NCBI GenBank assembly: GCA_026396115.1
Contig: JAPLXL010000005.1
Coordinates: forward strand, 66,967 to 130,966
From: Candidatus Nealsonbacteria bacterium
GTDB taxonomy: Bacteria > Patescibacteriota > Minisyncoccia > Minisyncoccales > RBG-13-42-11
Reading direction: 5' to 3'
DNA: 64,000 bases
Below the pieces are notes generated by a model, which searched no databases, had not been told where the DNA came from, and saw nothing but the letters and a program-made list of their open reading frames with translations. Numbering within the stretch: position 1 is the stretch's first letter; each line of letters opens with the position of its first letter. Below, piece by piece: positions 5,604 through 51,650 of the stretch. The translations under genes and the position numbers were made by a program.

Positions 5604-6128
5604 ATGAGTAAGTTCTTTAACATTTTCTTCAAGATGTTTCTTATAGCTGTGATAATATATTGTTTATACTCAATAATTATCGTCGTTGCCTCTTGGAATT
5701 ACAAGCCAGAAGATCAAATAATTAATAATCCTATTTTATCAGGGATAGAAACAGTTATCCTGGGTTCTGAAAAAGAATTACCATCCGAAAGTTCATTTGG
5801 AAAAGCTAAGGTATTTATAACTTTTAGGGAAGATGTATTGAAAGTATGGTTGTTTAATCCAAAAGTTTCAAAATGCTTTCTTTGCCAAGAGATAGAAGTC
5901 AGACCGAGTGGATATTTATCACGTGAAAAATCATGGCTATTATTTGTCGCACCACTTGATTTTTACATCAAAAGTGTTTCTTTAAAAGAAAATCTTTTAG
6001 AGATTAAATTAGGTATTTCAAAGGGCTTTGACAAATTTCAATTGGTACTTCTTGTATGCATGGCAGGGCTAATGGCTGTTTTATTAAAATCTTTAACTAA
6101 GAAACAAAATAAAAAGGTGCTGAGCTAA
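5604..6128 (+). CDS. hypothetical membrane protein
   Basis: 174 aa. N- and C-terminal hydrophobic helices. AGGAGAGGAG RBS. Confidence 0.5.
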   Translation: MSKFFNIFFKMFLIAVIIYCLYSIIIVVASWNYKPEDQIINNPILSGIETVILGSEKELPSESSFGKAKVFITFREDVLKVWLFNPKVSKCFLCQEIEVRPSGYLSREKSWLLFVAPLDFYIKSVSLKENLLEIKLGISKGFDKFQLVLLVCMAGLMAVLLKSLTKKQNKKVLS

Positions 6129-6170
6129 CGGCGCCTTTTTGATTAGTTAAAAAATGATAAATTGGTAAAA

Positions 6171-6201
6171 AATAGCCAAGCAGGCGGTTTTATGGTAGAA
6201 T
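6171..6201 (+). promoter_or_regulatory. junction repeat type A
   Basis: aatAGCCaagcaGGCGGttttaTGGTAGAAT. TAGAAT ends 7 nt before ATG 6209. Confidence 0.5.
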
Positions 6202-6208
6202 GAACTAT

Positions 6209-7336
6209 ATGATAAAAGAATTTAAAAAAGGAATATCTCTTCCTATAATAATCGTTATTTTAGCTCTCGTATTAATAGGCGGGGTGCTTATTTATTATTT
6301 TTTAATCAAAAATCCTGAATCCCCATCCTCGGGAGAAGAAACACTTATCAAAGTCGCCAGCCCGCAATCCAATCAGGAAATACAGAGCCCTTTTATAGTA
6401 AAAGGCGAAGCCAGAGGATATTGGTTTTTTGAGGCTACTTTTCCCACAAAACTGCTTGATGAAAATGGAAATATTATTAAGCAGACTATCGCCCAAGCCC
6501 AGGGAGAATGGATGACAGAGGATTTTGTCCCGTTTGAAGCCTTATTAACTTTTTCGGTTCCCAAAAATCAGAAAGGAACTCTCATTTTGGAAAAAGATAA
6601 TCCCTCGGGACTCCCCGAAAACGACGACGAAGTTAAAATTCCCATTCGTTTAAGCGCGACAGAAATACAAACTAATTTTTCCGAAACAGGAAATCTTGTA
6701 AAAGATAATCCCGGATTAAATCCCGGCGTTTGGTATTTGGTTTATGAAAAACCTGGGACTCCTGCTTTGAATGCCGAAATTAAATTTAACGAAGACAGTC
6801 TTTGTCAAATTGTCGCAGTTTCTCAATCTTGCCAGCAAACAGTACTTGAAGGAGGGGATAGAGTTGAGGTTACGGGTTGGGAAATAAACGGCATCTTGAT
6901 TGTTAAAAATATGGTGATACAAAAGACTTCCGAACAACTAAGGACGGTAAAATTGTATTACTATAATCCTAATTTGGATAAAGACAGCACTGGAAATATT
7001 CTTTGCAGCAGAAACGGCTTGGTAGCGGTGGAACGTGAAATTCCAATAACAAATACCCCTATCCAGGAAACAATAAGACTTCTTATTTCAGGAAATCTTA
7101 CCAGCGCAGAAAAGGCACAGGGCATTACTACCGAATATCCTTTACAAGAACTTAATCTAACGGCTGCATCATTAAATAGCGGCGTTTTGACGCTTACATT
7201 TGACGATTCCTACAACAAAACCGGCGGTGGTTCATGCCGGGTTGGTATTCTCTGGTTTCAGATTGAGGCTACTGCTAAGCAATTTCCCGAGGTTTCATCA
7301 GTACGCTTTATGCCCGAGGAATTATTCCAGCCATAA
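6209..7336 (+). CDS. secreted Gmad2 Ig-like + GerMN domain protein
   Basis: The track ORF starts at 6200, inside the TAGAAT box, so I prefer ATG 6209. Signal anchor. IKVASPQSNQEIQSPFIVKGEARGYWFFEATF (Gmad2-like). C-terminal KLYYYNPNLD...ETIRLLISG (GerMN-like). Confidence 0.6.
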   Translation: MIKEFKKGISLPIIIVILALVLIGGVLIYYFLIKNPESPSSGEETLIKVASPQSNQEIQSPFIVKGEARGYWFFEATFPTKLLDENGNIIKQTIAQAQGEWMTEDFVPFEALLTFSVPKNQKGTLILEKDNPSGLPENDDEVKIPIRLSATEIQTNFSETGNLVKDNPGLNPGVWYLVYEKPGTPALNAEIKFNEDSLCQIVAVSQSCQQTVLEGGDRVEVTGWEINGILIVKNMVIQKTSEQLRTVKLYYYNPNLDKDSTGNILCSRNGLVAVEREIPITNTPIQETIRLLISGNLTSAEKAQGITTEYPLQELNLTAASLNSGVLTLTFDDSYNKTGGGSCRVGILWFQIEATAKQFPEVSSVRFMPEELFQP

Positions 7337-7446: not shown

Positions 7447-7824
7447 ATGACAAAAATAACATTGTTTTGGTATATATTTTTAATTTTAAGTTTCATAGGT
7501 TTTTATTTAGCATACCTCTACGGGAAAAAAACTACAGAATTTAGGTGGAGTGAATATATAGCAATTATTATTATTCCGATTCTTTTTATTGTCTTCCTTA
7601 TTCTCTACTACGATTTTGCAATTCTAAAGCTGTTTATAGTAAGTGCCAGCATAGGTTTTGCAGCAGAAGGACTTATTGGTTTTGTATATGATAAGGTTCT
7701 CAATAGAAGATTGTGGACATATAATCGTCTAAGTATAAAAGGGTATACAAGTTATCTTAGTATTCCTCTTTGGGGAATTGCCGGGGTAATATTCTGGTTT
7801 ATCACTAAACTTGTTGGATTGTAA
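7447..7824 (+). CDS. multi-pass membrane protein (PF06541-like, putative ABC-transporter type IV family)
   Basis: 125 aa, 4 predicted TM helices. The AEGLIGFVYDKVLNRRLWTY segment resembles that family. Weak call. Confidence 0.45.
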   Translation: MTKITLFWYIFLILSFIGFYLAYLYGKKTTEFRWSEYIAIIIIPILFIVFLILYYDFAILKLFIVSASIGFAAEGLIGFVYDKVLNRRLWTYNRLSIKGYTSYLSIPLWGIAGVIFWFITKLVGL

Positions 7825-7908
7825 AATAGGTTCTAACAGTGTCCGGGAGCCAGGGTAGTAAGAGAATCGCCAATCAGCCTTCCAGCAAAGGCGATTTTTT
7901 GATAGAAT
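7823..7908 (+). repeat. junction repeat B+A
   Basis: aaaataGGTTCTAACagtgtccgggagcc...aaTCGCCaatcagccttccagcaaaGGCGAttttttGATAGAAT. TAGAAT ends 8 nt before ATG 7917. Confidence 0.6.
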
Positions 7909-7916
7909 AAAAATGT

Positions 7917-8393
7917 ATGAAAATTTATTTTGCGGGGTCAATTCGTGCTGGAAGAGTAGACCAAGAATCATATTTTAAAATAATTGAATATCTTAAAAAA
8001 TACGGACAGGTTTTGACCGAGCATGTTGGAGATAAGGATTTAACTGATTCAGGCGAGAAAAATATATCTGAAGGGGAAATTTATGAAAGAGATATGTCTT
8101 GGCTTAAAGAGACCGATGTTTTTATTGCTGAAATTTCAATCCCTTCTCTTGGCGTTGGTTATGAAATAGCAAAAGCTGAAGAATGGGGAAAAAGGATTCT
8201 ATGTCTTTGTAGGAAGCCAGAGGATGGAAAGAAAATATCTGCTATAATTAAAGGAAATAAGAACATAATCTTAAAAGAATACAATGATTTAGATGAGGCG
8301 TTTCAATATATTGATGATTTTTTAAACAAAACAGATTCTAACACCGTCCGTCCCTCGAAGCTAATAGCCCGAGCCTTTGGCTTGGGTTTTTGA
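7917..8393 (+). CDS. 2'-deoxynucleoside 5'-phosphate N-hydrolase (DNPH1/Rcl-like)
   Basis: MKIYFAGSIRAGRVDQESYFKIIEYLKKYGQVLTEHV and SIPSLGVGYEIAKAEEWGKRILCL closely follow the DNPH1 pattern (FCGSIRGGR...GKVLTEHV...PSLGVGYE). The last ~21 codons are encoded by a type B repeat. Confidence 0.75.
   Translation: MKIYFAGSIRAGRVDQESYFKIIEYLKKYGQVLTEHVGDKDLTDSGEKNISEGEIYERDMSWLKETDVFIAEISIPSLGVGYEIAKAEEWGKRILCLCRKPEDGKKISAIIKGNKNIILKEYNDLDEAFQYIDDFLNKTDSNTVRPSKLIARAFGLGF
8326..8392 (+). repeat. junction repeat type B, overlapping the 3' end of the DNPH1-like CDS
   Basis: aaaacaGATTCTAACaccgtccgtccCTCGAAGCTAatagcc... supplies the C-terminal tail KTDSNTVRPSKLIARAFGLGF and the stop. Confidence 0.55.
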
Positions 8394-9871: not shown

Positions 9872-10519
9872 ATGAAATTATTTTTAACATCAGCGGGATT
9901 GCCGCCAGAAACAACCGAAGAGTTTCTAAAATTACTCAACAAAAAACCCGAAGAAACTAAAATCTGTTTTATTACCACCGCCTCCCATCCAGAAGAGAAT
10001 AAGTGGTATGTAGAAAAAGACAGGGAGAGGCTATCGGAGTTAGGTTTTAAAATAACCGAATTTGATTTAAAGAAAGAAAATGAGAACTCTCTAAGAGACA
10101 AATTAAAAAATTTCGATGTCATTTTTGTCGAAGGGGGTAATACTTTCTATCTTTTAAAATATGTTCGAGAGAGCGGTTTTGATGAAGCTTTAAAGTTATT
10201 TTTAGAAAGAGGGGGAATTTATCTTGGGGTAAGCGCAGGCACCATAGTTACTGGGTTGAATATCGAATCCGCTAATTGGAAATATGCAGATAAAAATATA
10301 GTAAATTTAGAAGATTTAACTGGTCTAAAATTAGTTCCGTATGTGTTTTCTGTCCATATCGATGAGTCTAATTTAGATGTTGTTAAAAATATCGCAAATA
10401 AAGTTGATTATCCTGTGATTGCTTTAACCGATAAGCAGGCGCTTTTAATAGATAATGGAATAAAAAAAATCGTTGGAGGAGGAAAAAAATATGTATTTAA
10501 TACGGATACTAAACTATGA
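9872..10519 (+). CDS. peptidase E-like (S51 family) protein
   Basis: MKLFLTSAG, ICFITTAS, VIFVEGGNTFYLL, LGVSAGTIV (nucleophile-Ser context). Confidence 0.7.
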   Translation: MKLFLTSAGLPPETTEEFLKLLNKKPEETKICFITTASHPEENKWYVEKDRERLSELGFKITEFDLKKENENSLRDKLKNFDVIFVEGGNTFYLLKYVRESGFDEALKLFLERGGIYLGVSAGTIVTGLNIESANWKYADKNIVNLEDLTGLKLVPYVFSVHIDESNLDVVKNIANKVDYPVIALTDKQALLIDNGIKKIVGGGKKYVFNTDTKL

Positions 10520-11058
10520 AAAATAATGCAAAATTAATAATAAGCATATTAATCTGCGAGCTTGTTGGAGTTTTGGGCTCAATTTTCACAACGCCGGCGA
10601 TTAAAAGCTGGTATTTTTTTCTAGAAAAGCCCTTCTTTAGTCCGCCAAACTGGGTTTTTGCTCCGGTTTGGACAGTTTTATTTTTATTGATGGGTATCTC
10701 TTTATATCTGGTATGGGCAAAGAATTGGGTCAGCAAAGTTCCGGTCGGTAAGCCGGAATGGAAATCGTGGAATCCCATTTCGGCCAAATTGTGGACCGGT
10801 TCTTGGAAAGAAGAAAATGCAGTTGCGATTTTTGTCCTCCAGTTGGTTTTGAATATTTTGTGGTCGGTAATATTTTTCGGCTTGAAATTGCCAGGGCTGG
10901 CCTTTTTCGAAATTTTAATGCTCTGGTTCGCGATATTATATACAATTATAAATTTTTACCGGATATCCAAATCCGCGAGTTTCTTGCTTTTACCTTATAT
11001 TCTCTGGGTCACCTTCGCCGCAATTTTGAATTTCGCCGTATGGAGATTAAATTTGTAA
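10516..11058 (+). CDS. tspO: TspO/MBR tryptophan-rich sensory protein
   Basis: 180 aa, 5 TM. FFSPPNWVFAPVWTVLFLLMGISLYLVW, LNILWSVIFFG. ATGA overlap with the upstream gene. Confidence 0.85.
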   Translation: MKNNAKLIISILICELVGVLGSIFTTPAIKSWYFFLEKPFFSPPNWVFAPVWTVLFLLMGISLYLVWAKNWVSKVPVGKPEWKSWNPISAKLWTGSWKEENAVAIFVLQLVLNILWSVIFFGLKLPGLAFFEILMLWFAILYTIINFYRISKSASFLLLPYILWVTFAAILNFAVWRLNL

Positions 11059-31260: not shown

Positions 31261-32303
31261 AATTTAGCAAAAAAAGAGAAGTCGAATCTTGGAAAGTTGT
31301 AGATTTGATATCAAAAATAGAATCCGGAGAGCTTGATTTAGATACCGAATACCAAAGAGACATAATATGGTCAAAGTCTAAAAAAGCATTGCTGATAGAT
31401 TCAATATTAAAGGATATTGATATACCAAAAATTTATTTAGCATATTTTTTAAAAGAAAAAAAATATGAATGTATCGATGGAAAACAAAGAATCGCGTCAG
31501 TTTTAGATTTTTATAATAATGTTTTACAAACAACATCAGGAGAACGTTTTAAGGAGTTGCCAGATAAAAATATTTTTTTAAATTATCAGTTTTCTGTAAG
31601 TATTATTCGAGAACCTACACCTCAAGATATTTCTGAATTATTCTATAGATTAAACATAGGAGTCCCATTAAATGGGGGGGAATTAATTCATGCGATGAGA
31701 GGAGACATGATAGATTTTATATTTACTACAATCGGGGAAAAGGGACCGTTTATTGGTAAAGTAGGCATGAAACAATATAGGTTTTCAAGAGAAATTGCCC
31801 TAGCACAAATCATTATAAACTCAATTTTTTTTAGAGGAACGGGTGATTTTGTTAGAGCTAGATATGAAGACCTTTATAAATTTTTGAGCAAAGAAGAAAA
31901 TATAAAATTTGATTCAGTCGTTATAAAAAAAGTTAAAAAAATTGAATCAATCTTGCTTGAACTTGAAAGAATTTTTGGAAAAGACATTACTAGACTTAAC
32001 AGAAAATCAGCCATAGTATCTGCATATTTATTTTGCGAAGAAATGATAGAAAAAAAGAGCATAAAAGATTTAGAAAAATTCCCACAATTCTATTTACAAT
32101 TATTGGATGAGATAAAACAACAGGCGAATTTAATAAAAAAATATCGTACGCCTACAAAAAAAATACTCCTTGAAAGATTTCAAAAAAATCTTCAACAGGC
32201 TTCTGTTGAAGGATATTCAATAAAACGAAGACAAGAATTTTTAGAGGAAGCGTTTACCTATTATCTAAAAAACGGTAAAATAATAGGAGATAATATTACT
32301 TAA
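31245..32303 (+). CDS. DUF262 (ParB-like NTPase, GmrSD N-terminal type) protein
   Basis: LDTEYQRDIIWSKSKKALLIDSILKDIDIPKIYL, YECIDGKQRIASVLDF, LFYRLNIGVPLNGGELI. No HNH/DUF1524 half. 16-nt overlap with the SIR2 gene. Confidence 0.75.
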   Translation: MDKLIKFSKKREVESWKVVDLISKIESGELDLDTEYQRDIIWSKSKKALLIDSILKDIDIPKIYLAYFLKEKKYECIDGKQRIASVLDFYNNVLQTTSGERFKELPDKNIFLNYQFSVSIIREPTPQDISELFYRLNIGVPLNGGELIHAMRGDMIDFIFTTIGEKGPFIGKVGMKQYRFSREIALAQIIINSIFFRGTGDFVRARYEDLYKFLSKEENIKFDSVVIKKVKKIESILLELERIFGKDITRLNRKSAIVSAYLFCEEMIEKKSIKDLEKFPQFYLQLLDEIKQQANLIKKYRTPTKKILLERFQKNLQQASVEGYSIKRRQEFLEEAFTYYLKNGKIIGDNIT

Positions 32304-33538
32304 TTATTCCGCCATATTAAAACACTTTCTCTCGAAGGATTTCTTTTAAACCGTTGCATTTGCTGGGCGCTATTTCCCCTATATCTTGCAGTGAATATGG
32401 CATCGGTTGATAAACCCACTTGCTCTCCTATATCTGCTAATATTTTATCAACTGGGACATTGATACCTCCAAACCTGACATTACTTACAACAAGGGCGAT
32501 TTTCCCATTCTTCTTTAGGCAGTTTTTCATTCGAAGCAACGAAAGATACATATCTTCGAAATATCCTTCAATCATCTTTGGAACTTGTGAATTATTTAGT
32601 CCAGCCTTTCTAATTTTATTAATTAACGCATCAATAATTCTTGGCTTTTTATAGCCGTTTGCTTCAAATTGCTTTTTTGCCTCAACGTGAGATCTAAGAG
32701 TGTTATATCTAATCTTTTTTAGTTCATCATGATTTTTAATAAAGCCCACAATTAATTCGAGCCCGTATATTCTTGTATAGTCATGTCTATTTGGATATGG
32801 CGGAGAAGTAATGATCGCATCGAATTTTCTTTTTGTCTTCAATACTCTCGAGTCTGATATTTTAGCACCTACCTTTACGTCTGGAAATTTGAAATCATTT
32901 ATAAATTTCCCAACGTCATTAATCATCGCCTCAATCTTTAATAAAAATTGCCTAGTTACCTCACCATTAATAATTGTTTTTTTCTTAATCCGGAGAAAGC
33001 CGCCCGATTTTGAAGTGTTACTTACCGATTCTAAGATACTTAGCAATCCTAACATATAAAAATCTCTTACCTTAGGATTCCTAATTGTATCAATCTTGGA
33101 TTTTAGGCAAAGTAATTCTTTTTTTGTATTAGGACTAAAAGCTTCCCGTATGATTTTGATATCAGGTAAATCAATGTTTTTTCGTGATAAAAATCCCTTT
33201 TTGTAAAATCTTCCAAGATATCGCCTTAAAATTATAGGTTGATAGTTTCTTGTTTTGACATTAGATAAGAAAACAGAAAAAGGAAGTATGTCAAAACCTT
33301 CGGAATAAATGCCCATCTCCTTACATGCAAGAAGGGTCGTGCCGCCGCCACAGAAGGGATCCAAAACCCATGAATTTCTGCCAAGATTAAATTCGTCAAT
33401 CAACTTTTTTACCAATTCTCCGGAGTAGCTATGTTTAAAAGCATACCAGTTGTATCTTGGTTTATTACGGTCACTAAAAGGGGATATAAGTGGACCATAT
33501 TCATTTGTTTTTACAACAAGAGGAACGGTAGTAGGCAT
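32300..33538 (-). CDS. DNA methyltransferase (N6-adenine / N4-cytosine type)
   Basis: VLDPFCGGGTTLLA (motif I) precedes AIITSPPYPNRHDY (motif IV). I prefer ATG 33538 over the track TTG 33613. 4-nt tail-to-tail overlap with the DUF262 gene. Confidence 0.75.
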   Translation of the reverse strand: MPTTVPLVVKTNEYGPLISPFSDRNKPRYNWYAFKHSYSGELVKKLIDEFNLGRNSWVLDPFCGGGTTLLACKEMGIYSEGFDILPFSVFLSNVKTRNYQPIILRRYLGRFYKKGFLSRKNIDLPDIKIIREAFSPNTKKELLCLKSKIDTIRNPKVRDFYMLGLLSILESVSNTSKSGGFLRIKKKTIINGEVTRQFLLKIEAMINDVGKFINDFKFPDVKVGAKISDSRVLKTKRKFDAIITSPPYPNRHDYTRIYGLELIVGFIKNHDELKKIRYNTLRSHVEAKKQFEANGYKKPRIIDALINKIRKAGLNNSQVPKMIEGYFEDMYLSLLRMKNCLKKNGKIALVVSNVRFGGINVPVDKILADIGEQVGLSTDAIFTARYRGNSAQQMQRFKRNPSRESVLIWRNN

Positions 33539-33684
33539 ATTGCTTTCGTAGCGAGAAAATCTTATTATATTATAACAAATTGTGCAGTTTATGGTAAGAT
33601 AAACGTCGGACAAGGTATATTGTACAACTTTCTATAAATAGATACAAAATAAAAAAGTTGAGTTTATGAGAATGAGGCAAAAAA

Positions 33685-37859: not shown

Positions 37860-38447
37860 ATGGCAGAAGTTAAAGTTTTAATTGAAGGTTATACAACAGC
37901 CGATTCAGTATCCTCAAGCGGAGAAGAAAAAACATGCCCAACAATTACATTGGTGAGAGACGGAGATATTATTATGGTTGTTGACCCAGGAGTATTAGAA
38001 AATCAAAAAATGTTGGTTGATAAATTAAAAAAAGAAGGCCTAACAATAGATGATGTGAATGTTGTTTGTATAACCCATTCTCACATTGATCATTATAGGA
38101 ATATAGGCATGTTCCCTGAAGCAAAGACATTAGAATATTTTGGTTTATGGGACAGAAACACAGTGGAGGACTGGAAAGAACAATTTACAGAAAACATCCG
38201 GATTATAAAAACGCCGGGTCATAATTATGATTCAATAACTCTTCTTGTTAAAACAGATAATGGTATTGTCGCTATATGTGGAGATGTTTTTTGGAAAGAA
38301 GATTTCCCCAAAGACGATCCTTATGCTTCGGATAAAGAAAAGTTAGAAGAGAGCCGTAAGAAAGTTTTAGAAATGGCAGATTATATAATTCCTGGTCACG
38401 GAAAGATGTTTAAAGTTAAAAATAATCAAAATTTAGACCGAAGCTAA
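37860..38447 (+). CDS. MBL-fold metallo-hydrolase
   Basis: ATG 37860; the track TTG 37842 lies in the repeat. ITHSHIDHYRN, PGHNYDS, GDVFW, PGHG. The last 8 codons are encoded by a type C repeat. Confidence 0.8.
   Translation: MAEVKVLIEGYTTADSVSSSGEEKTCPTITLVRDGDIIMVVDPGVLENQKMLVDKLKKEGLTIDDVNVVCITHSHIDHYRNIGMFPEAKTLEYFGLWDRNTVEDWKEQFTENIRIIKTPGHNYDSITLLVKTDNGIVAICGDVFWKEDFPKDDPYASDKEKLEESRKKVLEMADYIIPGHGKMFKVKNNQNLDRS
38424..38445 (+). repeat. junction repeat type C overlapping a CDS 3' end
   Basis: AATCAAAATTTAGACCGAAGCT encodes NQNLDRS*. Confidence 0.5.
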
Positions 38448-38451
38448 ATTT

Positions 38452-38470
38452 GTTTAGGCTGAGCCTAAAC
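38452..38470 (+). other. 8-bp perfect hairpin
   Basis: GTTTAGGC-tga-GCCTAAAC. No T-run follows. Confidence 0.4.
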
Positions 38471-38520
38471 TTGGAGCCCATTTCAAAGGATAGTCGATTG
38501 AGAGGATTAGTTTCTTTAGA

Positions 38521-38571
38521 TTTGCATAGTTTTGCATACTATTTGCATAGTTTTGATTTTTTTGGTATGAT
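38521..38571 (+). promoter_or_regulatory. three TTTGCATA(G/C) direct repeats overlapping a promoter (candidate operator)
   Basis: Repeats at 38521, 38531 and 38542 (10- and 11-nt spacing). The third provides TTGCAT as the -35. 17-nt spacer ending in TGg, then TATGAT. ATG 38578 is 6 nt downstream. Confidence 0.5.
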
Positions 38572-38577
38572 TATTTT

Positions 38578-39297
38578 ATGGATAAGGAACTTTTAACCAT
38601 TGGCGAAGCCGCTGAATTTCTAGGTGTTTCTATCGATACATTGAGACGCTGGGATAAAAGCGGTAAGTTAGTTGCGACTCGAAAAGAGGGAGGAACGCAC
38701 CGGTATTATTTGAAAGGGGATCTGGCGCTTTTTTCTAGCGACTTATTGAAATTGGCAAAGGATTGGGCTTTTTCCGGAGGAGATATACCTCCAGAGTTTT
38801 ATTGCTCAAATAGCGCGATTTTCCAGGCAAGATTGTTGAGAATGCAGGATGTGCTTATAGCTTCTAAGAAAGCTGATAAGATTTTTTCTCTTATTGTCGC
38901 AGTGACCGGTGAGATCGGTAATAATTCTTATGATCATAATCTTGGTAATTGGCCTGACATGGCTGGAGTATTTTTTGGTTATGATATTAATAAAGGCACC
39001 ATTGTCTTAGCGGATCGGGGATTGGGTATTCTTGGAACATTAAGAAGGGTAAGACCTTCGCTTGCTAATCATCAAGACGCTCTTTTAGTTGCCTTCACAG
39101 AAATGATTTCTGGCCGAGCGCCTGAGAATCGTGGAAATGGTTTAAAGTTTGTTCGTAAGATTATTTCGGAGAACCCCATTGATCTGTTCTTCCAGAGCGG
39201 CGATGCTGAATTAAAAATGAAAGGCAATAATCCAAAGTTGGATATAGGGAAATCCAAGACCAATATTATAGGATGCTTTGCAATTATTAACTTTTAA
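38578..39297 (+). CDS. MerR/excisionase-type HTH fused to GHKL (HATPase_c-like) ATPase domain
   Basis: LLTIGEAAEFLGVSIDTLRRWDKSGKL, then GEIGNNSYDHN (N box-like), DRGLGI and NRGNGLKFV (G boxes). Confidence 0.6.
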   Translation: MDKELLTIGEAAEFLGVSIDTLRRWDKSGKLVATRKEGGTHRYYLKGDLALFSSDLLKLAKDWAFSGGDIPPEFYCSNSAIFQARLLRMQDVLIASKKADKIFSLIVAVTGEIGNNSYDHNLGNWPDMAGVFFGYDINKGTIVLADRGLGILGTLRRVRPSLANHQDALLVAFTEMISGRAPENRGNGLKFVRKIISENPIDLFFQSGDAELKMKGNNPKLDIGKSKTNIIGCFAIINF

Positions 39298-39307
39298 TCT
39301 CAAAAGT

Positions 39308-39577
39308 ATGATTATTGAACTAAAAAAATTTGGGAATACTCTCATATCAAGGCAGGCCGGACGAGAAGCATTTGCCGCATTTCAGCCGACCTTGCGCGAT
39401 GTTAATCCGGCAGAAAAGCTTGAGATAGATTTTGAAGGTGTTTTAACGTTTTCTCCCTCATGGGCGGATGAGTTTCTTACCCCGCTTATAAAAGAATTTG
39501 GCGATCGAGTTATTCTGCGTACTACCGATAATCCTTCTGTAAAGGCAACGTTGGAGATCTTGGAAAAAAGGAATTAA
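39308..39577 (+). CDS. DUF4325 (STAS-like) protein
   Basis: 89 aa. SRQAGREAF...LEIDFEGVLTFSPSWADEFL is typical of the STAS-like DUF4325 partner of GHKL ATPases. The stop lies inside a type D repeat. Confidence 0.6.
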   Translation: MIIELKKFGNTLISRQAGREAFAAFQPTLRDVNPAEKLEIDFEGVLTFSPSWADEFLTPLIKEFGDRVILRTTDNPSVKATLEILEKRN

Positions 39578-39615
39578 TTGAGAAATAAAATTAACTAATC
39601 AATTTTAGCCAAAGC
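39564..39615 (+). repeat. junction repeats D then C (degenerate)
   Basis: aaaaaaggAATTAATTGAGAAATAAAATTaactAATCAATTTTAGCCAAAGC. Confidence 0.45.
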
Positions 39616-39642
39616 ATTTAAAGGAGAAATATAAAACAAGCT

Positions 39643-40395
39643 ATGTTTAAAGCTAAAACAGATAAAATTTTCAAATTATCACAAGAGCATGCCGAAGTTG
39701 TAAAAGAATTAGAAGGAACTTTCGGCAAAAGAACGAATATCTATATTGATTTTGCAAATGTTATCCGTTGGCAGGAAAAACTCAATTGGCATATTGATTT
39801 AAAAAGATTAAAACAATTTTTCGATTCTTTTGATACAATAAATTTAGTTAAATTTTATAGCGGTACATTAGTTGGAAATATAGCATCTGAGAAATTTATA
39901 GAAGAGATAAGAAGTATGAAATACGATGTTCACACAAAACCAGTAAAAATAATGAAATTATCAATTGATGTTTCCAGTATTCCTGCAAATTCACCCGCAC
40001 TGCTTGAAAATTTTATAAGAAAACCGTTATTAAAAGAATTTAATCTTGAGACAATAGAATATTTGAATAAAAAACTTAAAGAATTAAACGATAAAGGCAT
40101 CAAATTTATTCAAGATAAAAAGTGCAATTTTGATGTAGAAATCGGGAGAGATATGCTTATTGACTATGAGAGAAACGACATTGATAATTTTATTTTATGG
40201 AGTGGTGATAGTGATTTTGCGGATCCAGTAAGTCAGCTTTTAAAAGACGGAAAGAAGGTTGTCATTTTCGGCACTGCAAGGAGAATTTCGCCAGAACTTT
40301 CAAATACTGGCGCTCAAATATTTGAAATTAAAAAGATAAAAGAATTTATTTGTTGGCCCAGAGAAAGCCAAAAGGACCCATTGCTGGGCCCTTAA
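39643..40395 (+). CDS. NYN-domain (LabA/PIN-like) putative ribonuclease
   Basis: IYIDFANV, ILWSGDSDFADPVSQLLKDGKKVVIFG. Confidence 0.7.
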   Translation: MFKAKTDKIFKLSQEHAEVVKELEGTFGKRTNIYIDFANVIRWQEKLNWHIDLKRLKQFFDSFDTINLVKFYSGTLVGNIASEKFIEEIRSMKYDVHTKPVKIMKLSIDVSSIPANSPALLENFIRKPLLKEFNLETIEYLNKKLKELNDKGIKFIQDKKCNFDVEIGRDMLIDYERNDIDNFILWSGDSDFADPVSQLLKDGKKVVIFGTARRISPELSNTGAQIFEIKKIKEFICWPRESQKDPLLGP

Positions 40396-40495
40396 GCTTT
40401 AGATTTTTGGTTAATTTTCGTTAACCAATTTTAATATATCAAAATGAATAATGTCTGTCAATAGTGACACATTGTGGATAATTTTCAATTTAAAT

Positions 40496-40511
40496 AATCA
40501 AAATTTAGCCC
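40496..40511 (+). repeat. junction repeat type C (truncated)
   Basis: AATCAAAATTTAGCCC. Confidence 0.4.
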
Positions 40512-40627
40512 ATATTAAAGAAAAAAATTAAGAACGCAAACCGCCCATCGCTGGGCAATTTTTATTTTCGCCCGAGAGTTTTTCCCGGGTTTTTGTTTTG
40601 CGGGCGATAAAGCTATAATAAAATAAT

Positions 40628-42073
40628 ATGAATTCTCTCAAAGATCATCGTACCAATTGGATACACATTTTAATTTGGGTGGTTTTAGTCTCGATCGTTG
40701 GCGGAGGAATTTTAGTTTATACGATGAAGGGACCAGAAAAAGAAGTTAAAGAAAAAAAACCGCCAAGCATTGGTGAATTAGAAAAAGAAGTTTTAGCTAC
40801 CAGCTACAAAAAAGAATATACATATGTGGGTAAACCGGAAGGAATGGTAAAGTTAGTGATAAAGAACAATTTAAATAAAAGCATTTGTTTTGAATCTTGT
40901 AATACTTATTATCCTCTCCAGAAAAAAGATACACGCTGGAAAAATGTTTATGAAAAAGCTTGTGAGATAAACCCTGTTAAAGAATGTATCAGCCCAAATG
41001 AAACTAAAATATTCGAATACGTTACTATTTGGAAAGAAAAGGGAATTTTCAAGTTCGCAGTTCCTGTTTGTGTTGATTGCGAGAACTTGATGAATTCGAG
41101 TTTCCGAGAAGATGGAATAATCTACTCCAACGAATTCACGGTTACAAAATTAAATGTTACAGAAGAAACGAATCTATCGTTAAAGGTTGAAATAGACCAG
41201 AATGACATCTCTTCCTACAGAGATTTTATCGAAAACAACAAGCAATATCAGAAACCAATATCAATGACTGAATTGCGGCGTCAAATTGAGAATGCCAGGG
41301 CCTATCTCGAAACTAATCCTTCGGGCAAGATTACTGATGATTTGAGAGAAAAAATTATTGAGGAATTAAACATAGGCTTTCTATTAGACGGACTTACCGA
41401 GAGAGAATTAGCAGTAACTACCGTTGCTTCGCAAGAGTATGAAGAATATATTGAAAAAGAATTGTTATTTGAAGACCCGCAAGTTGGAACTTTTTCTGCT
41501 CTACTTTTGATTCCTAAAGAGAATAAATCATATCCGGCAATTGTGGGCTTACATGGTCATGGCGATAATAACTATATTTTCAGAGACAAGTATCTTGGTA
41601 AAGAATTGGCAAAAGAAGGATTTGTAGTAATCATGCTTTCATTCAGGGCTATGTTTTGCGATGAAATAGAAAACAATATCAGCGAAGAATTGCTTTCGAA
41701 TAACTTTAGTTTAATGGGGCTGAGAGTTTATGAGACACTACTTCTGATAAAATATCTGAAATACAATGATTTTGTTGATGAGTCCAGGATAGGTATTATG
41801 GGCCATTCCGGCGGCAGTGATACGGCAAATTTAGTTTCAAGAATAAGCCCTGATATCAAGGCAGGAATTTATGATTTTGACACAGATATGCTTAATGTTT
41901 GTGGTGAGAGAGGAATTCATTGCGAAACAAACCCGGGTCTGGGCTATTATAATCCTCAAATAAATGACCGTTCTACATTAGGGTTTCCCTTTCGCATGTT
42001 TGAGTATGGTTATCCTGGCGAAAATGATAAACAGGAAGTAATAGAATTCTTTAAAGAAAAACTAGGGGAATGA
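40628..42073 (+). CDS. membrane-anchored alpha/beta hydrolase (dienelactone hydrolase/esterase-like C-terminus)
   Basis: N-terminal TM. C-terminal HGHGDN and nucleophile elbow GIMGHSGGSD. Confidence 0.55.
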   Translation: MNSLKDHRTNWIHILIWVVLVSIVGGGILVYTMKGPEKEVKEKKPPSIGELEKEVLATSYKKEYTYVGKPEGMVKLVIKNNLNKSICFESCNTYYPLQKKDTRWKNVYEKACEINPVKECISPNETKIFEYVTIWKEKGIFKFAVPVCVDCENLMNSSFREDGIIYSNEFTVTKLNVTEETNLSLKVEIDQNDISSYRDFIENNKQYQKPISMTELRRQIENARAYLETNPSGKITDDLREKIIEELNIGFLLDGLTERELAVTTVASQEYEEYIEKELLFEDPQVGTFSALLLIPKENKSYPAIVGLHGHGDNNYIFRDKYLGKELAKEGFVVIMLSFRAMFCDEIENNISEELLSNNFSLMGLRVYETLLLIKYLKYNDFVDESRIGIMGHSGGSDTANLVSRISPDIKAGIYDFDTDMLNVCGERGIHCETNPGLGYYNPQINDRSTLGFPFRMFEYGYPGENDKQEVIEFFKEKLGE

Positions 42074-50603: not shown

Positions 50604-51650
50604 TCACTTCAGTATTGCGCCTATAAAATCCAAGTGACCTCTTATAAAATCTTCGGCTATCATTTCTTTTTTACCTTCCATTTGTAATTTTTCAATAAGC
50701 AAAAAATCTTTTTTACACTGGATGCCAATTTCATTTTGAGGAACGACTAATACCTTACCAATAGGGTATTTAATTTTATCCGGTGACTTAAAAACCCTGG
50801 CTTTTAAAACTTTAATTTTTATTAATTTGCCTTTATTTTCCCAAATTATATAACTGCCCGGCCAAGGATAAAAAGTCCTAATTTCTCTTTCTAATAGTTC
50901 TACCGGTTTTTTCCAATCTATTTTTCCGTCTTTTTTGAATAAAATTTTCGTGAAAGTTACCTGAGCATCATCTTGTTCTTTAGGTTTTATCAGCCCTTTA
51001 ACCCATTTGGGAATAGTTTCTAATAGTAGGTAAGCGCCCAATTGAGCTAATTTATTATGAAGGGTCTCTGCGGTTTCTTGTTCTTTAATTTCTAAGCTTT
51101 TTTGAGAGATGATCGGACCATGATCAATTTTTTCATCCATTAAAATTATTGTCACCCCGGATTTTTTTTCGCCATTTAAAATAGTAAATTGAATTGGTGA
51201 AGGTCCGCGATATTTTGGCAATAATGAAGGATGAATGTTCAAAAAACCAAATTTGGGAATATCTAATATATCTTTCGGGATTATCTGACCATAGGCTGCC
51301 AGAATTCCTAAATCTGGTTTTAAATTTTTAATTTTTAATTTTAAATGGGCGAAGAAGGCTTGCCTTCTTCTTCCCCCTTCGCTATCGCTCGGGAGAGCGA
51401 AGACGGCTTTGCCGTCTTCTTTCGCCTCGCTCCGCTGCCGCGGAACTCGGCTTTCAATTCTTTCTGGCTGTTCAACCGGAATACCATATTTCCGGGCAAC
51501 CACTTTGACCGGTGGGGGAGTTAAAATTTGTTTCCTGCCTACGGGTTTATCGGGCGAGCTAATAACCAAAACGGGCGGGTAGCCGCCTTTGATTAATTCT
51601 TCCAAGATAATAGCGCCAAACTCCGGCGTTCCTATAAAAATTATTTTCAT
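50604..51650 (-). CDS. fmt: methionyl-tRNA formyltransferase with ~37-aa insertion
   Basis: MKIIFIGTPEFG, NIHPSLLPKYRGPSPIQ. ATG at 51650 (ATGA overlap with the upstream gene). The ESRVPRQRSEAKEDGKAVFALPSDSEGGRRRQAFFAH segment is absent from the Fmt sequences I know. Confidence 0.9.
   Translation of the reverse strand: MKIIFIGTPEFGAIILEELIKGGYPPVLVISSPDKPVGRKQILTPPPVKVVARKYGIPVEQPERIESRVPRQRSEAKEDGKAVFALPSDSEGGRRRQAFFAHLKLKIKNLKPDLGILAAYGQIIPKDILDIPKFGFLNIHPSLLPKYRGPSPIQFTILNGEKKSGVTIILMDEKIDHGPIISQKSLEIKEQETAETLHNKLAQLGAYLLLETIPKWVKGLIKPKEQDDAQVTFTKILFKKDGKIDWKKPVELLEREIRTFYPWPGSYIIWENKGKLIKIKVLKARVFKSPDKIKYPIGKVLVVPQNEIGIQCKKDFLLIEKLQMEGKKEMIAEDFIRGHLDFIGAILK
51347..51395 (-). repeat. E element copy a inside fmt CDS
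   Basis: GGGCGAAGAAGGCttgCCTTCTTCTTCCCCCTTCGCTATCGCTCGGGAG. Confidence 0.65.
51397..51450 (-). repeat. E element copy b inside fmt CDS (tandem with copy a)
   Basis: GCGAAGACGGCtttGCCGTCTTCTTTCGCCTCGCTCCGCTGCCGCGGAACTCGG. Confidence 0.6.

Follow-up and report, generated by a model that had tools for sequence, protein, structure and literature searches.

The question raised by this locus is which of three adjacent genes in a 64,000-nucleotide stretch of DNA from Candidatus Nealsonbacteria bacterium (GCA_026396115.1, contig JAPLXL010000005.1, positions 66,967 to 130,966; the whole stretch is referred to below as the window, and coordinates are those of the window unless another locus is named) form a functional unit, and how such a unit would work. 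A preliminary description of the region had grouped a protein with a helix-turn-helix (HTH) and a GHKL-type ATPase domain, a small STAS-like DUF4325 protein and an NYN-domain putative RNase into a trio resembling a conflict system, and had placed this trio behind a triple operator repeat. Comparison with related genomes leads to a different delimitation, in which window ~38510-39577 is a 1.06-kb cassette, consisting of an operator, a promoter and the first two genes, that is conserved across Patescibacteria, and the NYN gene is an unrelated chance neighbour of that cassette.

Direct reading of the sequence bears out the coordinates of all three open reading frames (ORFs), which lie on the plus strand. 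The HTH-GHKL gene occupies 38578-39297 (239 amino acids), the gene of the DUF4325 (STAS-like) partner occupies 39308-39577 (89 amino acids; identified by Pfam, with its ATG fixed at 39308 by alignment), and the adjacent NYN-domain gene occupies 39643-40395 (250 amino acids; Pfam NYN, E 5e-17). Pfam searches thus recovered the expected DUF4325, NYN and MerR/HTH_17 families, and the expected HATPase match was not obtained on the window protein.

The pairing of the first two genes is strict, with a DUF4325 homologue directly downstream of the HTH-GHKL gene and on the same strand in 88 of 88 loci, and its earlier characterisation as the small partner of the ATPase can be extended to that of a fixed one. 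The DUF4325 protein itself scores 29.0 bits with PF14213 (cutoff 23, E 8.6e-7). Its homologue clusters number more than 2100, many of them with a precomputed PF14213 match, and it is conserved to a degree similar to that of the HTH-GHKL protein. The latter has 5495 homologue clusters, the best 120 of which are almost all 239 amino acids long, 64-97% identical, and derived throughout from sources with names of the candidate phyla radiation (CPR). A scan that took one genome per GTDB species detected relatives in at least 561 of these representatives, almost all titled as Patescibacteria/CPR lineages (Nealson-, Staskawicz-, Yanofsky-, Portnoy-, Giovannoni-, Doudna-, Berkel-, Magasanik-, Peregrini-/Peribacteria and others), with protein identity of 53-71% across the listed loci.

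The third gene behaves differently, and its membership in the unit was ruled out by tblastn in the 88 loci, by a census of the next downstream genes in 73 species (clustering and Pfam) and by the contexts of its homologues. A homologue of the window NYN protein lies within ~5 kb in none of the 88 loci, and the NYN gene is therefore not co-conserved with the ATPase/DUF4325 pair. The downstream genes of the 73 species comprise 67 singletons and 3 pairs, a housekeeping mix with few defence-like members, and no NYN or PIN family occurs among their listed Pfam families; likewise, no conserved third gene stands behind the pair in these species, and no sigma factor or PP2C gene is co-conserved with it. 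Among close relatives, whose HTH-GHKL proteins are 96-97% identical, the pair is followed by an HD_4 gene in L209 and by a 70-amino-acid ORF in L217; the L215 and L216 sequences, which stop at or inside the DUF4325 gene, carry a distant NYN paralogue (27-29% identical) 2 kb upstream of the cassette. Furthermore, DNA similarity to these relatives ends at 39567, ahead of the NYN gene, which belongs to a conserved Patescibacterial family of its own (about 248 amino acids, 1986 matches) and whose closest homologues, 81% and 72% identical, stand in unrelated contexts, beside RadC and a type I restriction-modification (R-M) system or inside mreBCD-PBP2. The latter placement recurs in some genomes, where a member of the NYN family is found between mreD and the PBP2 gene (L223/L224 4001-4750).

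A conserved three-gene conflict system, in which the HTH-GHKL protein as sensor and the STAS-like protein as its partner would control the NYN/PIN-like RNase as effector, is refuted by these comparisons, and the corresponding reading of the window locus is very improbable. What speaks for it is weak and indirect: the three genes share one strand with short gaps, a simple terminator scan found no terminator before the NYN gene, the NYN protein matches the generic PADLOC models 'NYN' and HEC-09 (HEC-09 E 4e-7), an orphan DUF4325 gene in L190 has a 25%-identical NYN-like ORF 1.5 kb further downstream, and one class of PIN-domain genes has been reported to be transcriptionally coupled to DUF4325 genes (PMC5499597). 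The arrangement is consistent with the NYN gene being co-transcribed with the cassette in this genome, as it may be, and the adjacent gene is not to be annotated as part of a defence trio.

The non-coding part of the cassette is as well defined as its genes. The three 9-mers of the preliminary description, with their -35, -10 and ATG spacing, are all present at the coordinates given for them: TTTGCATAG at 38521-38529, TTTGCATAC at 38531-38539 and TTTGCATAG again at 38542-38550, of the common form TTTGCATA(G/C), with starts at 38521, 38531 and 38542 and start-to-start distances of 10 and 11 nt. A repeat search shows the true unit to be longer, namely two exact 15-mers, ATTTGCATAGTTTTG, that begin at 38520 and 38541, 21 nt apart; both lie on the plus strand, as operator repeat 1 (38520..38534) and operator repeat 2 (38541..38555), the second of which overlaps the -35 hexamer TTGCAT (38543-38548). 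The middle copy (38531..38539, plus strand; TGCATAC) falls outside the conserved TGNNTAG core, so that of the proposed triple operator the direct repeats stand, and the conserved part is reduced to the two 15-mers with a degenerate extra copy between them.

Conservation of this arrangement was assessed in the 130 nt upstream of the HTH-GHKL gene in 79 usable loci. The TGNNTAG core occurs there in all 79, in 2-4 copies in 75 of them, at a density of 2.49 per 130 nt as compared with 0.055 in the rest of the loci (a 45-fold enrichment, well above what chance would produce), and the operator consensus reads (A/T)TG(C/T)ATAG(A/T)TTT. Repeats are spaced by 20-21 nt in 89 of 118 cases, and the 10-11-nt spacing is rare in loci other than that of the window. 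In the window, the extended -10 TGgTATGAT (38563..38571, plus strand) follows TTGCAT after a 17-nt spacer, and the ATG at 38578 follows the -10 by 6 nt. A -10-like hexamer is found 16-19 nt past the last repeat in 52 of the 79 loci (at 17 nt in 44 of these), with an extended TG in 47 of the 52 and with 6-9 nt between -10 and ATG in 30 of the 52. Leaders of ~20 nt that carry an AAGAGG Shine-Dalgarno sequence occur in some other lineages. The short distance to the ATG suggests that the mRNA would be leaderless and that the cassette promoter is largely of this kind; the earlier proposal of an operator overlapping the -35 of such a promoter is supported, the last repeat coinciding with the -35 in most of the loci.

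The operator is also essentially confined to the cassette. Correctly spaced repeat pairs were sought on both strands of 693 kb of related loci, where 97 of 99 precede a copy of the HTH-GHKL gene, and in the 64-kb window, where none was found besides the cassette's own; a wider regulon found no support in these sequences, as the only gene returned by the paired-repeat search was the cassette gene in its several copies. A second candidate site at 10511-10531 (minus strand) was set aside, as it sits at the junction of two genes and looks like chance. In a metagenome scan with the exact paired motif, the HTH-GHKL gene is the next gene at 70 of 120 sites; the remaining 50 comprise 6 contig ends, 11 unrelated tandem arrays of period 21, 4 promoter-like sites and 29 sites devoid of promoter geometry, and no consistent second target emerged from the 120.

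A few sites stand apart from the complete cassette. In L190 (~7790-8170) and L199 (~605-975), the operator and promoter lie directly before a DUF4325 gene on metagenome contigs in which the HTH-GHKL gene is absent, and about 30 more paired repeats have neither the gene nor the promoter geometry, among them L100/L137, L117 (ahead of a methyltransferase-like ORF, by eye) and L152 (ahead of a Fic-like ORF, by eye). All of these, L190 and L199 among them, may be orphan operators or secondary targets.

Equally informative are cassettes with another N-terminal domain. In L220, where the regulator carries a winged HTH (wHTH), the -35 is covered by an inverted repeat, GTTGACAGTTGAC/TGTCAACTGTCAAC (1395-1440), and the promoter retains a -10, TGCTATAAT, with the ATG 6 nt later, as in the HTH cassettes; upstream of the HTH-less variant L213, no TGCATAG repeats are present. 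As judged from these loci, operator symmetry varies with the kind of DNA-binding domain, and the layout of the promoter is preserved. Since the wHTH locus has its inverted repeat and the HTH-less locus has no repeats, autoregulation through an operator at the -35 appears to be built into the HTH-bearing cassettes examined.

The domain expected to read the operator is a BldC/excisionase-like, MerR-type winged HTH at residues 5-50 (38590..38727, plus strand), assigned by Pfam, which matches MerR and HTH_17 there (MerR E 1e-12) in agreement with the earlier assignment to the MerR/excisionase type, and by fold. In both sequence and fold it is closest to BldC (6ama/6amk; ~40% identity, template-modelling (TM) score 0.73), with RacA and the N-terminal domains of MerR proteins as the next-best matches. 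Arg30, Trp31 and Leu43 of BldC align with R24, W25 and L31, which are invariant or nearly so in homologues; the NCBIfam model HTH_BldC scores 27.6 bits against a cutoff of 77.

That this domain binds the repeats is suggested most strongly by covariation between protein and DNA, centred on residue 20 (Asp20 codon 38635-38637) at the start of the recognition helix, S-I-D-T-L-R-R-W. Aspartate at this position is accompanied by C at base 3 of the repeat in 47 of 47 loci and methionine or glutamine by T in 26 of 26, and the rarer residues behave less uniformly, asparagine occurring with A or G in 3 loci and threonine with A or T in 2. The mutual information between residue 20 and base 3 amounts to 1.17 bits, as compared with 0.73 for the next-best column. 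On a neighbour-joining (NJ) tree built from the C-terminal domain only, residue 20, base 3 and their combined state each need 8 changes; as the combined state requires no more than either component, residue and base change on the same branches. Such co-change, repeated about 8 times, argues for direct autoregulation with the operator read by the HTH, and gives substance to the earlier view of the repeats as the binding site of this domain.

Among characterised regulators, a close parallel is BldC of Streptomyces, the founder of a family of small MerR-like proteins; it is the one MerR-like regulator for which head-to-tail binding of direct repeats is known, and its structure resembles that of Xis (PMC5859096); excisionases of the lambda Xis type can be likened to the cassette HTH alongside it. 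The two share the type of winged HTH and conserve the residues equivalent to Arg30, Trp31 and Leu43, and the operator is again built from direct repeats, varying in number (1-4), along a single face of the helix. In contrast, BldC is a stand-alone protein of 68 residues with repeats about 9-10 bp apart that controls a developmental regulon, whereas the HTH of the cassette is fused to a GHKL module of 180 residues, its repeats are 20-21 bp apart and only self-regulation is apparent. Classical MerR proteins differ further, in that they bind a palindrome in a spacer of 19-20 bp rather than direct repeats over and upstream of the -35 of a promoter with a 17-nt spacer, and continue after the HTH into a coiled-coil dimerisation helix and an effector domain rather than a GHKL domain. 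Consistent with this, the full-length AlphaFold2 (AF2) model, which is mediocre (predicted local distance difference test score (pLDDT) 73), shows the GHKL domain following the HTH and no long coiled coil between them. The HTH also matches the PADLOC 2.0 model of Mad1 from the MADS system (PDLC04133, E 2e-12), the only PADLOC match of the HTH, and no model is matched by the DUF4325 protein. Membership in MADS was rejected, as only the HTH bears a resemblance and none of Mad2-8 is found at the cassette; Mad1 is a generic small HTH regulator of that 8-gene system, and the MADS finder model requires Mad6-8 and treats Mad1 as accessory on account of its resemblance to widespread regulators.

The remainder of the protein, residues ~99-239 (38872..39294, plus strand), is a GHKL (Bergerat-fold) ATPase-like domain, according to its invariant motifs and its AF2 model, and the N, G1 and G2 motifs are intact. 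The N box, GEIGNNSYDHN, lies at 38908-38940 (E112 codon 38911-38913), G1, DRGLG, at 39013-39027 and G2, RGNGLK, at 39130-39147, all located by alignment on the plus strand. The motifs of the window protein singled out at the outset (NNSYDHN, DRGLGI, RGNGLKFV) are invariant in its homologues; across 57 relatives with identities down to 31%, positions E112, N116, H120, N121, D146, G148, G150, R185 and G186 never vary, and N187 and G188 hardly do. The N box has the E-x3-N-x3-H spacing of histidine and anti-sigma kinases, and the G2 box, only RGNG, is shorter than the classical GxxGxG. For residues 55-239, a deeper alignment gave a model with a pLDDT of 95.2 and a predicted TM score (pTM) of 0.90, in which the Bergerat fold is recognised. 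The domain was missed by a profile search of PDB sequences, which found only the HTH, and a fold search was therefore needed for its identification; Foldseek against the PDB yielded 120 matches with E<=1e-3 (probability as high as 1.00, TM score about 0.4), and those listed are all ATPase domains of Hsp90/TRAP1, GyrB or topoisomerase II. As an observation in its own right, Cys76 (38803-38805, YC motif) and Cys233 (39274-39276, GC motif) never vary among close homologues, are the consensus at their positions in the wider family, and could form a redox or metal site.

These structural matches raise the alternative that the GHKL domain is an ATP-driven dimerisation clamp in the style of MORC, GyrB, MutL or Hsp90, which would join two HTHs on repeats 21 bp apart and make the protein mainly a DNA-organising factor or an ATP-gated repressor, with DUF4325 as modulator. 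Hsp90/TRAP1, GyrB and topoisomerase II domains dimerise on ATP binding, the N-box glutamate that serves as catalytic base in such ATPases is invariant, the two operator sites lie on the same helix face, and the HTH also resembles RacA, a chromosome-anchoring protein. Nevertheless, we consider a clamp distinctly unlikely: the E-x3-N-x3-H spacing and the Pfam matches of relatives point to the kinase-like HATPase_c_2 branch, a transducer or second domain as in MORC, GyrB and MutL is missing, direct rather than inverted repeats misfit a symmetric clamp, and in 757 kb other sites are few or absent.

For the partner, alignment reveals an invariant T-F-S-P-S-W-x-D-E-F-L-T-P-L block, whose TFSPSW motif (39446-39463, plus strand) has invariant T47 and S49 and a nearly invariant S51. 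By eye, the block looks similar to DLSxVxFxDSSG, the stretch of SpoIIAA that bears the phosphoserine.

Taken together, the best explanation of the cassette, to which we give somewhat better than even chances, is a protein that joins a BldC-like autorepressor to an anti-sigma-kinase-like ATPase and works with a STAS-like partner. The HTH would bind direct repeats two helical turns apart, a step well supported by the comparison of loci, and would repress its own promoter; repression is favoured over activation because the promoter-proximal repeat covers the -35. The GHKL domain, of the RsbW/SpoIIAB (HATPase_c_2) kind, would bind ATP, as its invariant motifs suggest, and would engage the co-expressed DUF4325 protein, as the strict gene linkage and the RsbW/RsbV precedent lead us to infer. 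Phosphorylation of DUF4325 on the invariant serines of TFSPSW is a possible, speculative addition. Finally, the state of nucleotide and partner would modulate DNA binding or a second activity, and nucleotide or energy status, as the putative signal, would thereby feed back on the cassette.

Several observations weigh against this explanation. On the side of the ATPase, the C-terminal 180 residues of the window protein have no Pfam (and hence no HATPase), NCBIfam or PADLOC match, none of the HATPase matches in relatives clearly exceeds its cutoff (HATPase_c in 7 and HATPase_c_2 in 5 of the 57, best E about 5e-4), and the best structural matches to Hsp90, GyrB and topoisomerase II are not kinases. 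On the side of the partner, an hhalign comparison of DUF4325 with Bacillus subtilis SpoIIAA gave a probability of 0.08%, which is not significant, and a search of the PDB with the DUF4325 profile found nothing; with neither comparison significant, the STAS relationship of DUF4325 derives from Pfam curation. At the level of the circuit, the cassette carries neither a PP2C phosphatase nor a sigma factor, which leaves a classical partner switch incomplete, its only clear target is the cassette itself, and no output is evident. In addition, the residue-base covariation could be inflated by errors in the NJ tree.

The partner-switching modules SpoIIAB/SpoIIAA and RsbW/RsbV each consist of a GHKL anti-sigma kinase and a STAS anti-anti-sigma factor. 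Like the cassette, they encode in one compact operon a small GHKL domain, with E-x3-N-x3-H and G boxes, and a small STAS-like partner whose serines are invariant; they differ in that the cassette has no sigma factor or PP2C, that its HTH output is fused to the kinase-like domain, that its partner is a DUF4325 protein with no significant similarity to SpoIIAA, and that its kinase activity is putative. The bifunctional enzyme-repressors BirA and NadR join an enzymatic or nucleotide-binding domain to an N-terminal HTH, through which the state of the ligand governs repression of their own operon; their folds and ligands are unrelated to those of the cassette, and their enzymatic outputs are known. 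WhiJ/BldB/AbaA-like gene clusters of Streptomyces unite an Xre HTH, a small DUF397 protein and a HATPase_c_2 anti-sigma-like protein. They resemble the cassette as a repeated module of HTH regulator, small partner and RsbW-like GHKL protein, and differ from it in being three separate proteins with a DUF397 partner and an Xre HTH, in actinobacterial paralogue families that nothing links to the cassette by descent (cluster membership: PMC10294661).

A broader interpretation arises from the architecture of the family. The C-terminal domain alone retrieves 326 clusters at the 50% identity level, and in the 57 relatives the N-terminal part is variously a MerR-like HTH, a wHTH (HTH_24/MarR/HTH_11), an Xre HTH (once) or a cytidylyltransferase-like domain (once); clusters of ~190-200 amino acids that lack an N-terminal domain make up, by a rough count, about a third of those listed. 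A DUF4325 gene follows in all three architectures that were looked up, namely MerR-like HTH, wHTH (L220) and HTH-less (L213). Because DUF4325 follows all three and other lineages vary the N-terminal domain, we conclude from the comparison that GHKL and DUF4325 constitute the core, and the DNA-binding domain an exchangeable autoregulatory add-on. The protein P0270 (320 amino acids) has its GHKL domain fused to an N-terminal CTP_transf_like domain (Pfam E 2.6e-12) instead of an HTH. On a tentative view, which we regard as possible rather than probable, GHKL and DUF4325 would be an ancestral, phylum-wide switch sensing nucleotide or energy status, a form of partner switching in which kinase and DNA-binding domain share one polypeptide and the true output would be phosphorylation or sequestration of a further target.

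The surroundings of the cassette invite another reading, namely that it is mobile, selfish or defensive, a module akin to toxin-antitoxin or abortive-infection systems, in which the GHKL protein would be the toxic or sensing component, DUF4325 its antagonist and the HTH a means of autoregulation only. DNA similarity to the close relatives L209, L215, L216 and L217 (94-97% identity) is confined to 38486/38510-39567, that is, to the operator and the two genes; their flanks are unrelated, and the acetyltransferase, CAP and nitroreductase genes they share with the window encode proteins only 43-66% identical and lie at other positions. Such confinement could reflect either strong selection on the cassette in fluid genomes or its transfer or conversion. 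Neighbours moreover differ in nearly every species and sometimes include AbiEii, AbiTii, R-M, nSTAND3 or Fic genes, the operator occurs essentially only at the cassette's own promoter, and orphan operators and orphan DUF4325 genes exist. In L027, two protein-identical copies with their own operators (952-2091 and 5949-6737) lie 5 kb apart in one contig and flank a gene of 363 amino acids together with genes of 205 and 427 amino acids judged AbiE-like by size and order only; duplication, a composite element or an artefact of assembly could each account for this double cassette.

Outside the phylum, a distant GHKL relative is encoded on plasmid pMET2 of Aminobacter sp. NyZ550 (L225, 83095-86004), with a HATPase_c_2 score of 25.6 bits against a cutoff of 27.4 and an hhalign probability of 96.7% tying it to the window family. 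It belongs to an operon of four genes, whose other products are a weakly matching DUF4325/'STAS-like' protein, one hypothetical protein and one of the DUF4417 family. Immediately downstream of the operon come the defence genes HmaC/DUF499 and DUF1156, with trbI close by, so that a distant relative with its STAS-like gene stands beside an Hma defence system.

Even so, a mobile or defensive module is unlikely. The cassette is present in the 561 or more species representatives already mentioned, nearly all Patescibacteria/CPR, and the tree of the C-terminal domain groups its tips by named lineage (Staskawicz-, Yanofsky-, Berkel-, Peribacteraceae), which we count as a sign of vertical inheritance. 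The conservation of the proteins across the listed loci is very high, unlike that of typical defence genes, and many of the neighbourhoods are plainly housekeeping. Viral carriage is limited to 1 of 2.9 million viral contigs, the phage database gave no match and plasmids only distant relatives, PADLOC recognises nothing in the cassette beyond the generic HTH, and a recognisable toxin, recombinase or terminal repeats are missing. An autorepressor with an anti-sigma-kinase-like domain and a STAS-like partner remains the preferred explanation.

Some further features of the region lie outside the cassette or at its edges. At the junction with the NYN gene, the degenerate 24-nt direct repeat that had been noted earlier does exist (39567-39590 and 39611-39634, plus strand; 79% identity over 24 nt), and its significance is uncertain; the first copy begins where DNA similarity to the relatives' cassettes ends, and the repeat may be a rearrangement breakpoint or a product of chance in AT-rich DNA. 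On the other side, a perfect 9-bp hairpin, GTTTAGGCT / AGCCTAAAC, at 38452-38470 lies just past the stop codon of an upstream gene for a metallo-beta-lactamase-fold protein and may be its terminator, though no T tract follows it. An Rfam scan of 38300-40700 gave nothing credible. Further away, an N6_N4 DNA methylase ORF (E 7e-12) occupies 32300-33613 on the minus strand, ~5 kb upstream of the cassette, and a 51-nt element, 92% identical between its copies, occurs once in the window (51347-51396) and twice in L215 (4282-4331 and 4435-4484); ARAGORN finds no tRNA in it.

Each part of the cassette is of a known fold class, and its logic resembles partner switching and enzyme-repressor fusions; in the literature searched, no description was found of the BldC-like HTH-GHKL and DUF4325 architecture, its operator or its distribution, and sources name the HTH-GHKL and DUF4325 homologues only generically. 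Much of bacterial diversity belongs to Patescibacteria/CPR, most of them uncultured, and to our knowledge very little is known about their gene regulation. In this setting, the cassette offers a very widespread and highly conserved regulator pair together with an operator and its promoter layout, and DUF4325, a domain with almost no literature and only three brief mentions in the texts searched, gains a fixed partner in the GHKL domain. The recognition rule of one residue and one base lends itself to in vitro tests on synthetic protein and DNA and requires no culturing; being immediately testable, and in a poorly understood phylum, the finding is of moderate to high interest. Should the tentative view of an ancestral switch prove true, an anti-sigma-like kinase would be wired to DNA through exchangeable domains, or to an enzyme as in the cytidylyltransferase fusion, and the cassette would rank among the few circuits of ultra-small symbionts with a defined protein, a defined operator and a defined specificity code (Asp20-C, Met/Gln20-T).

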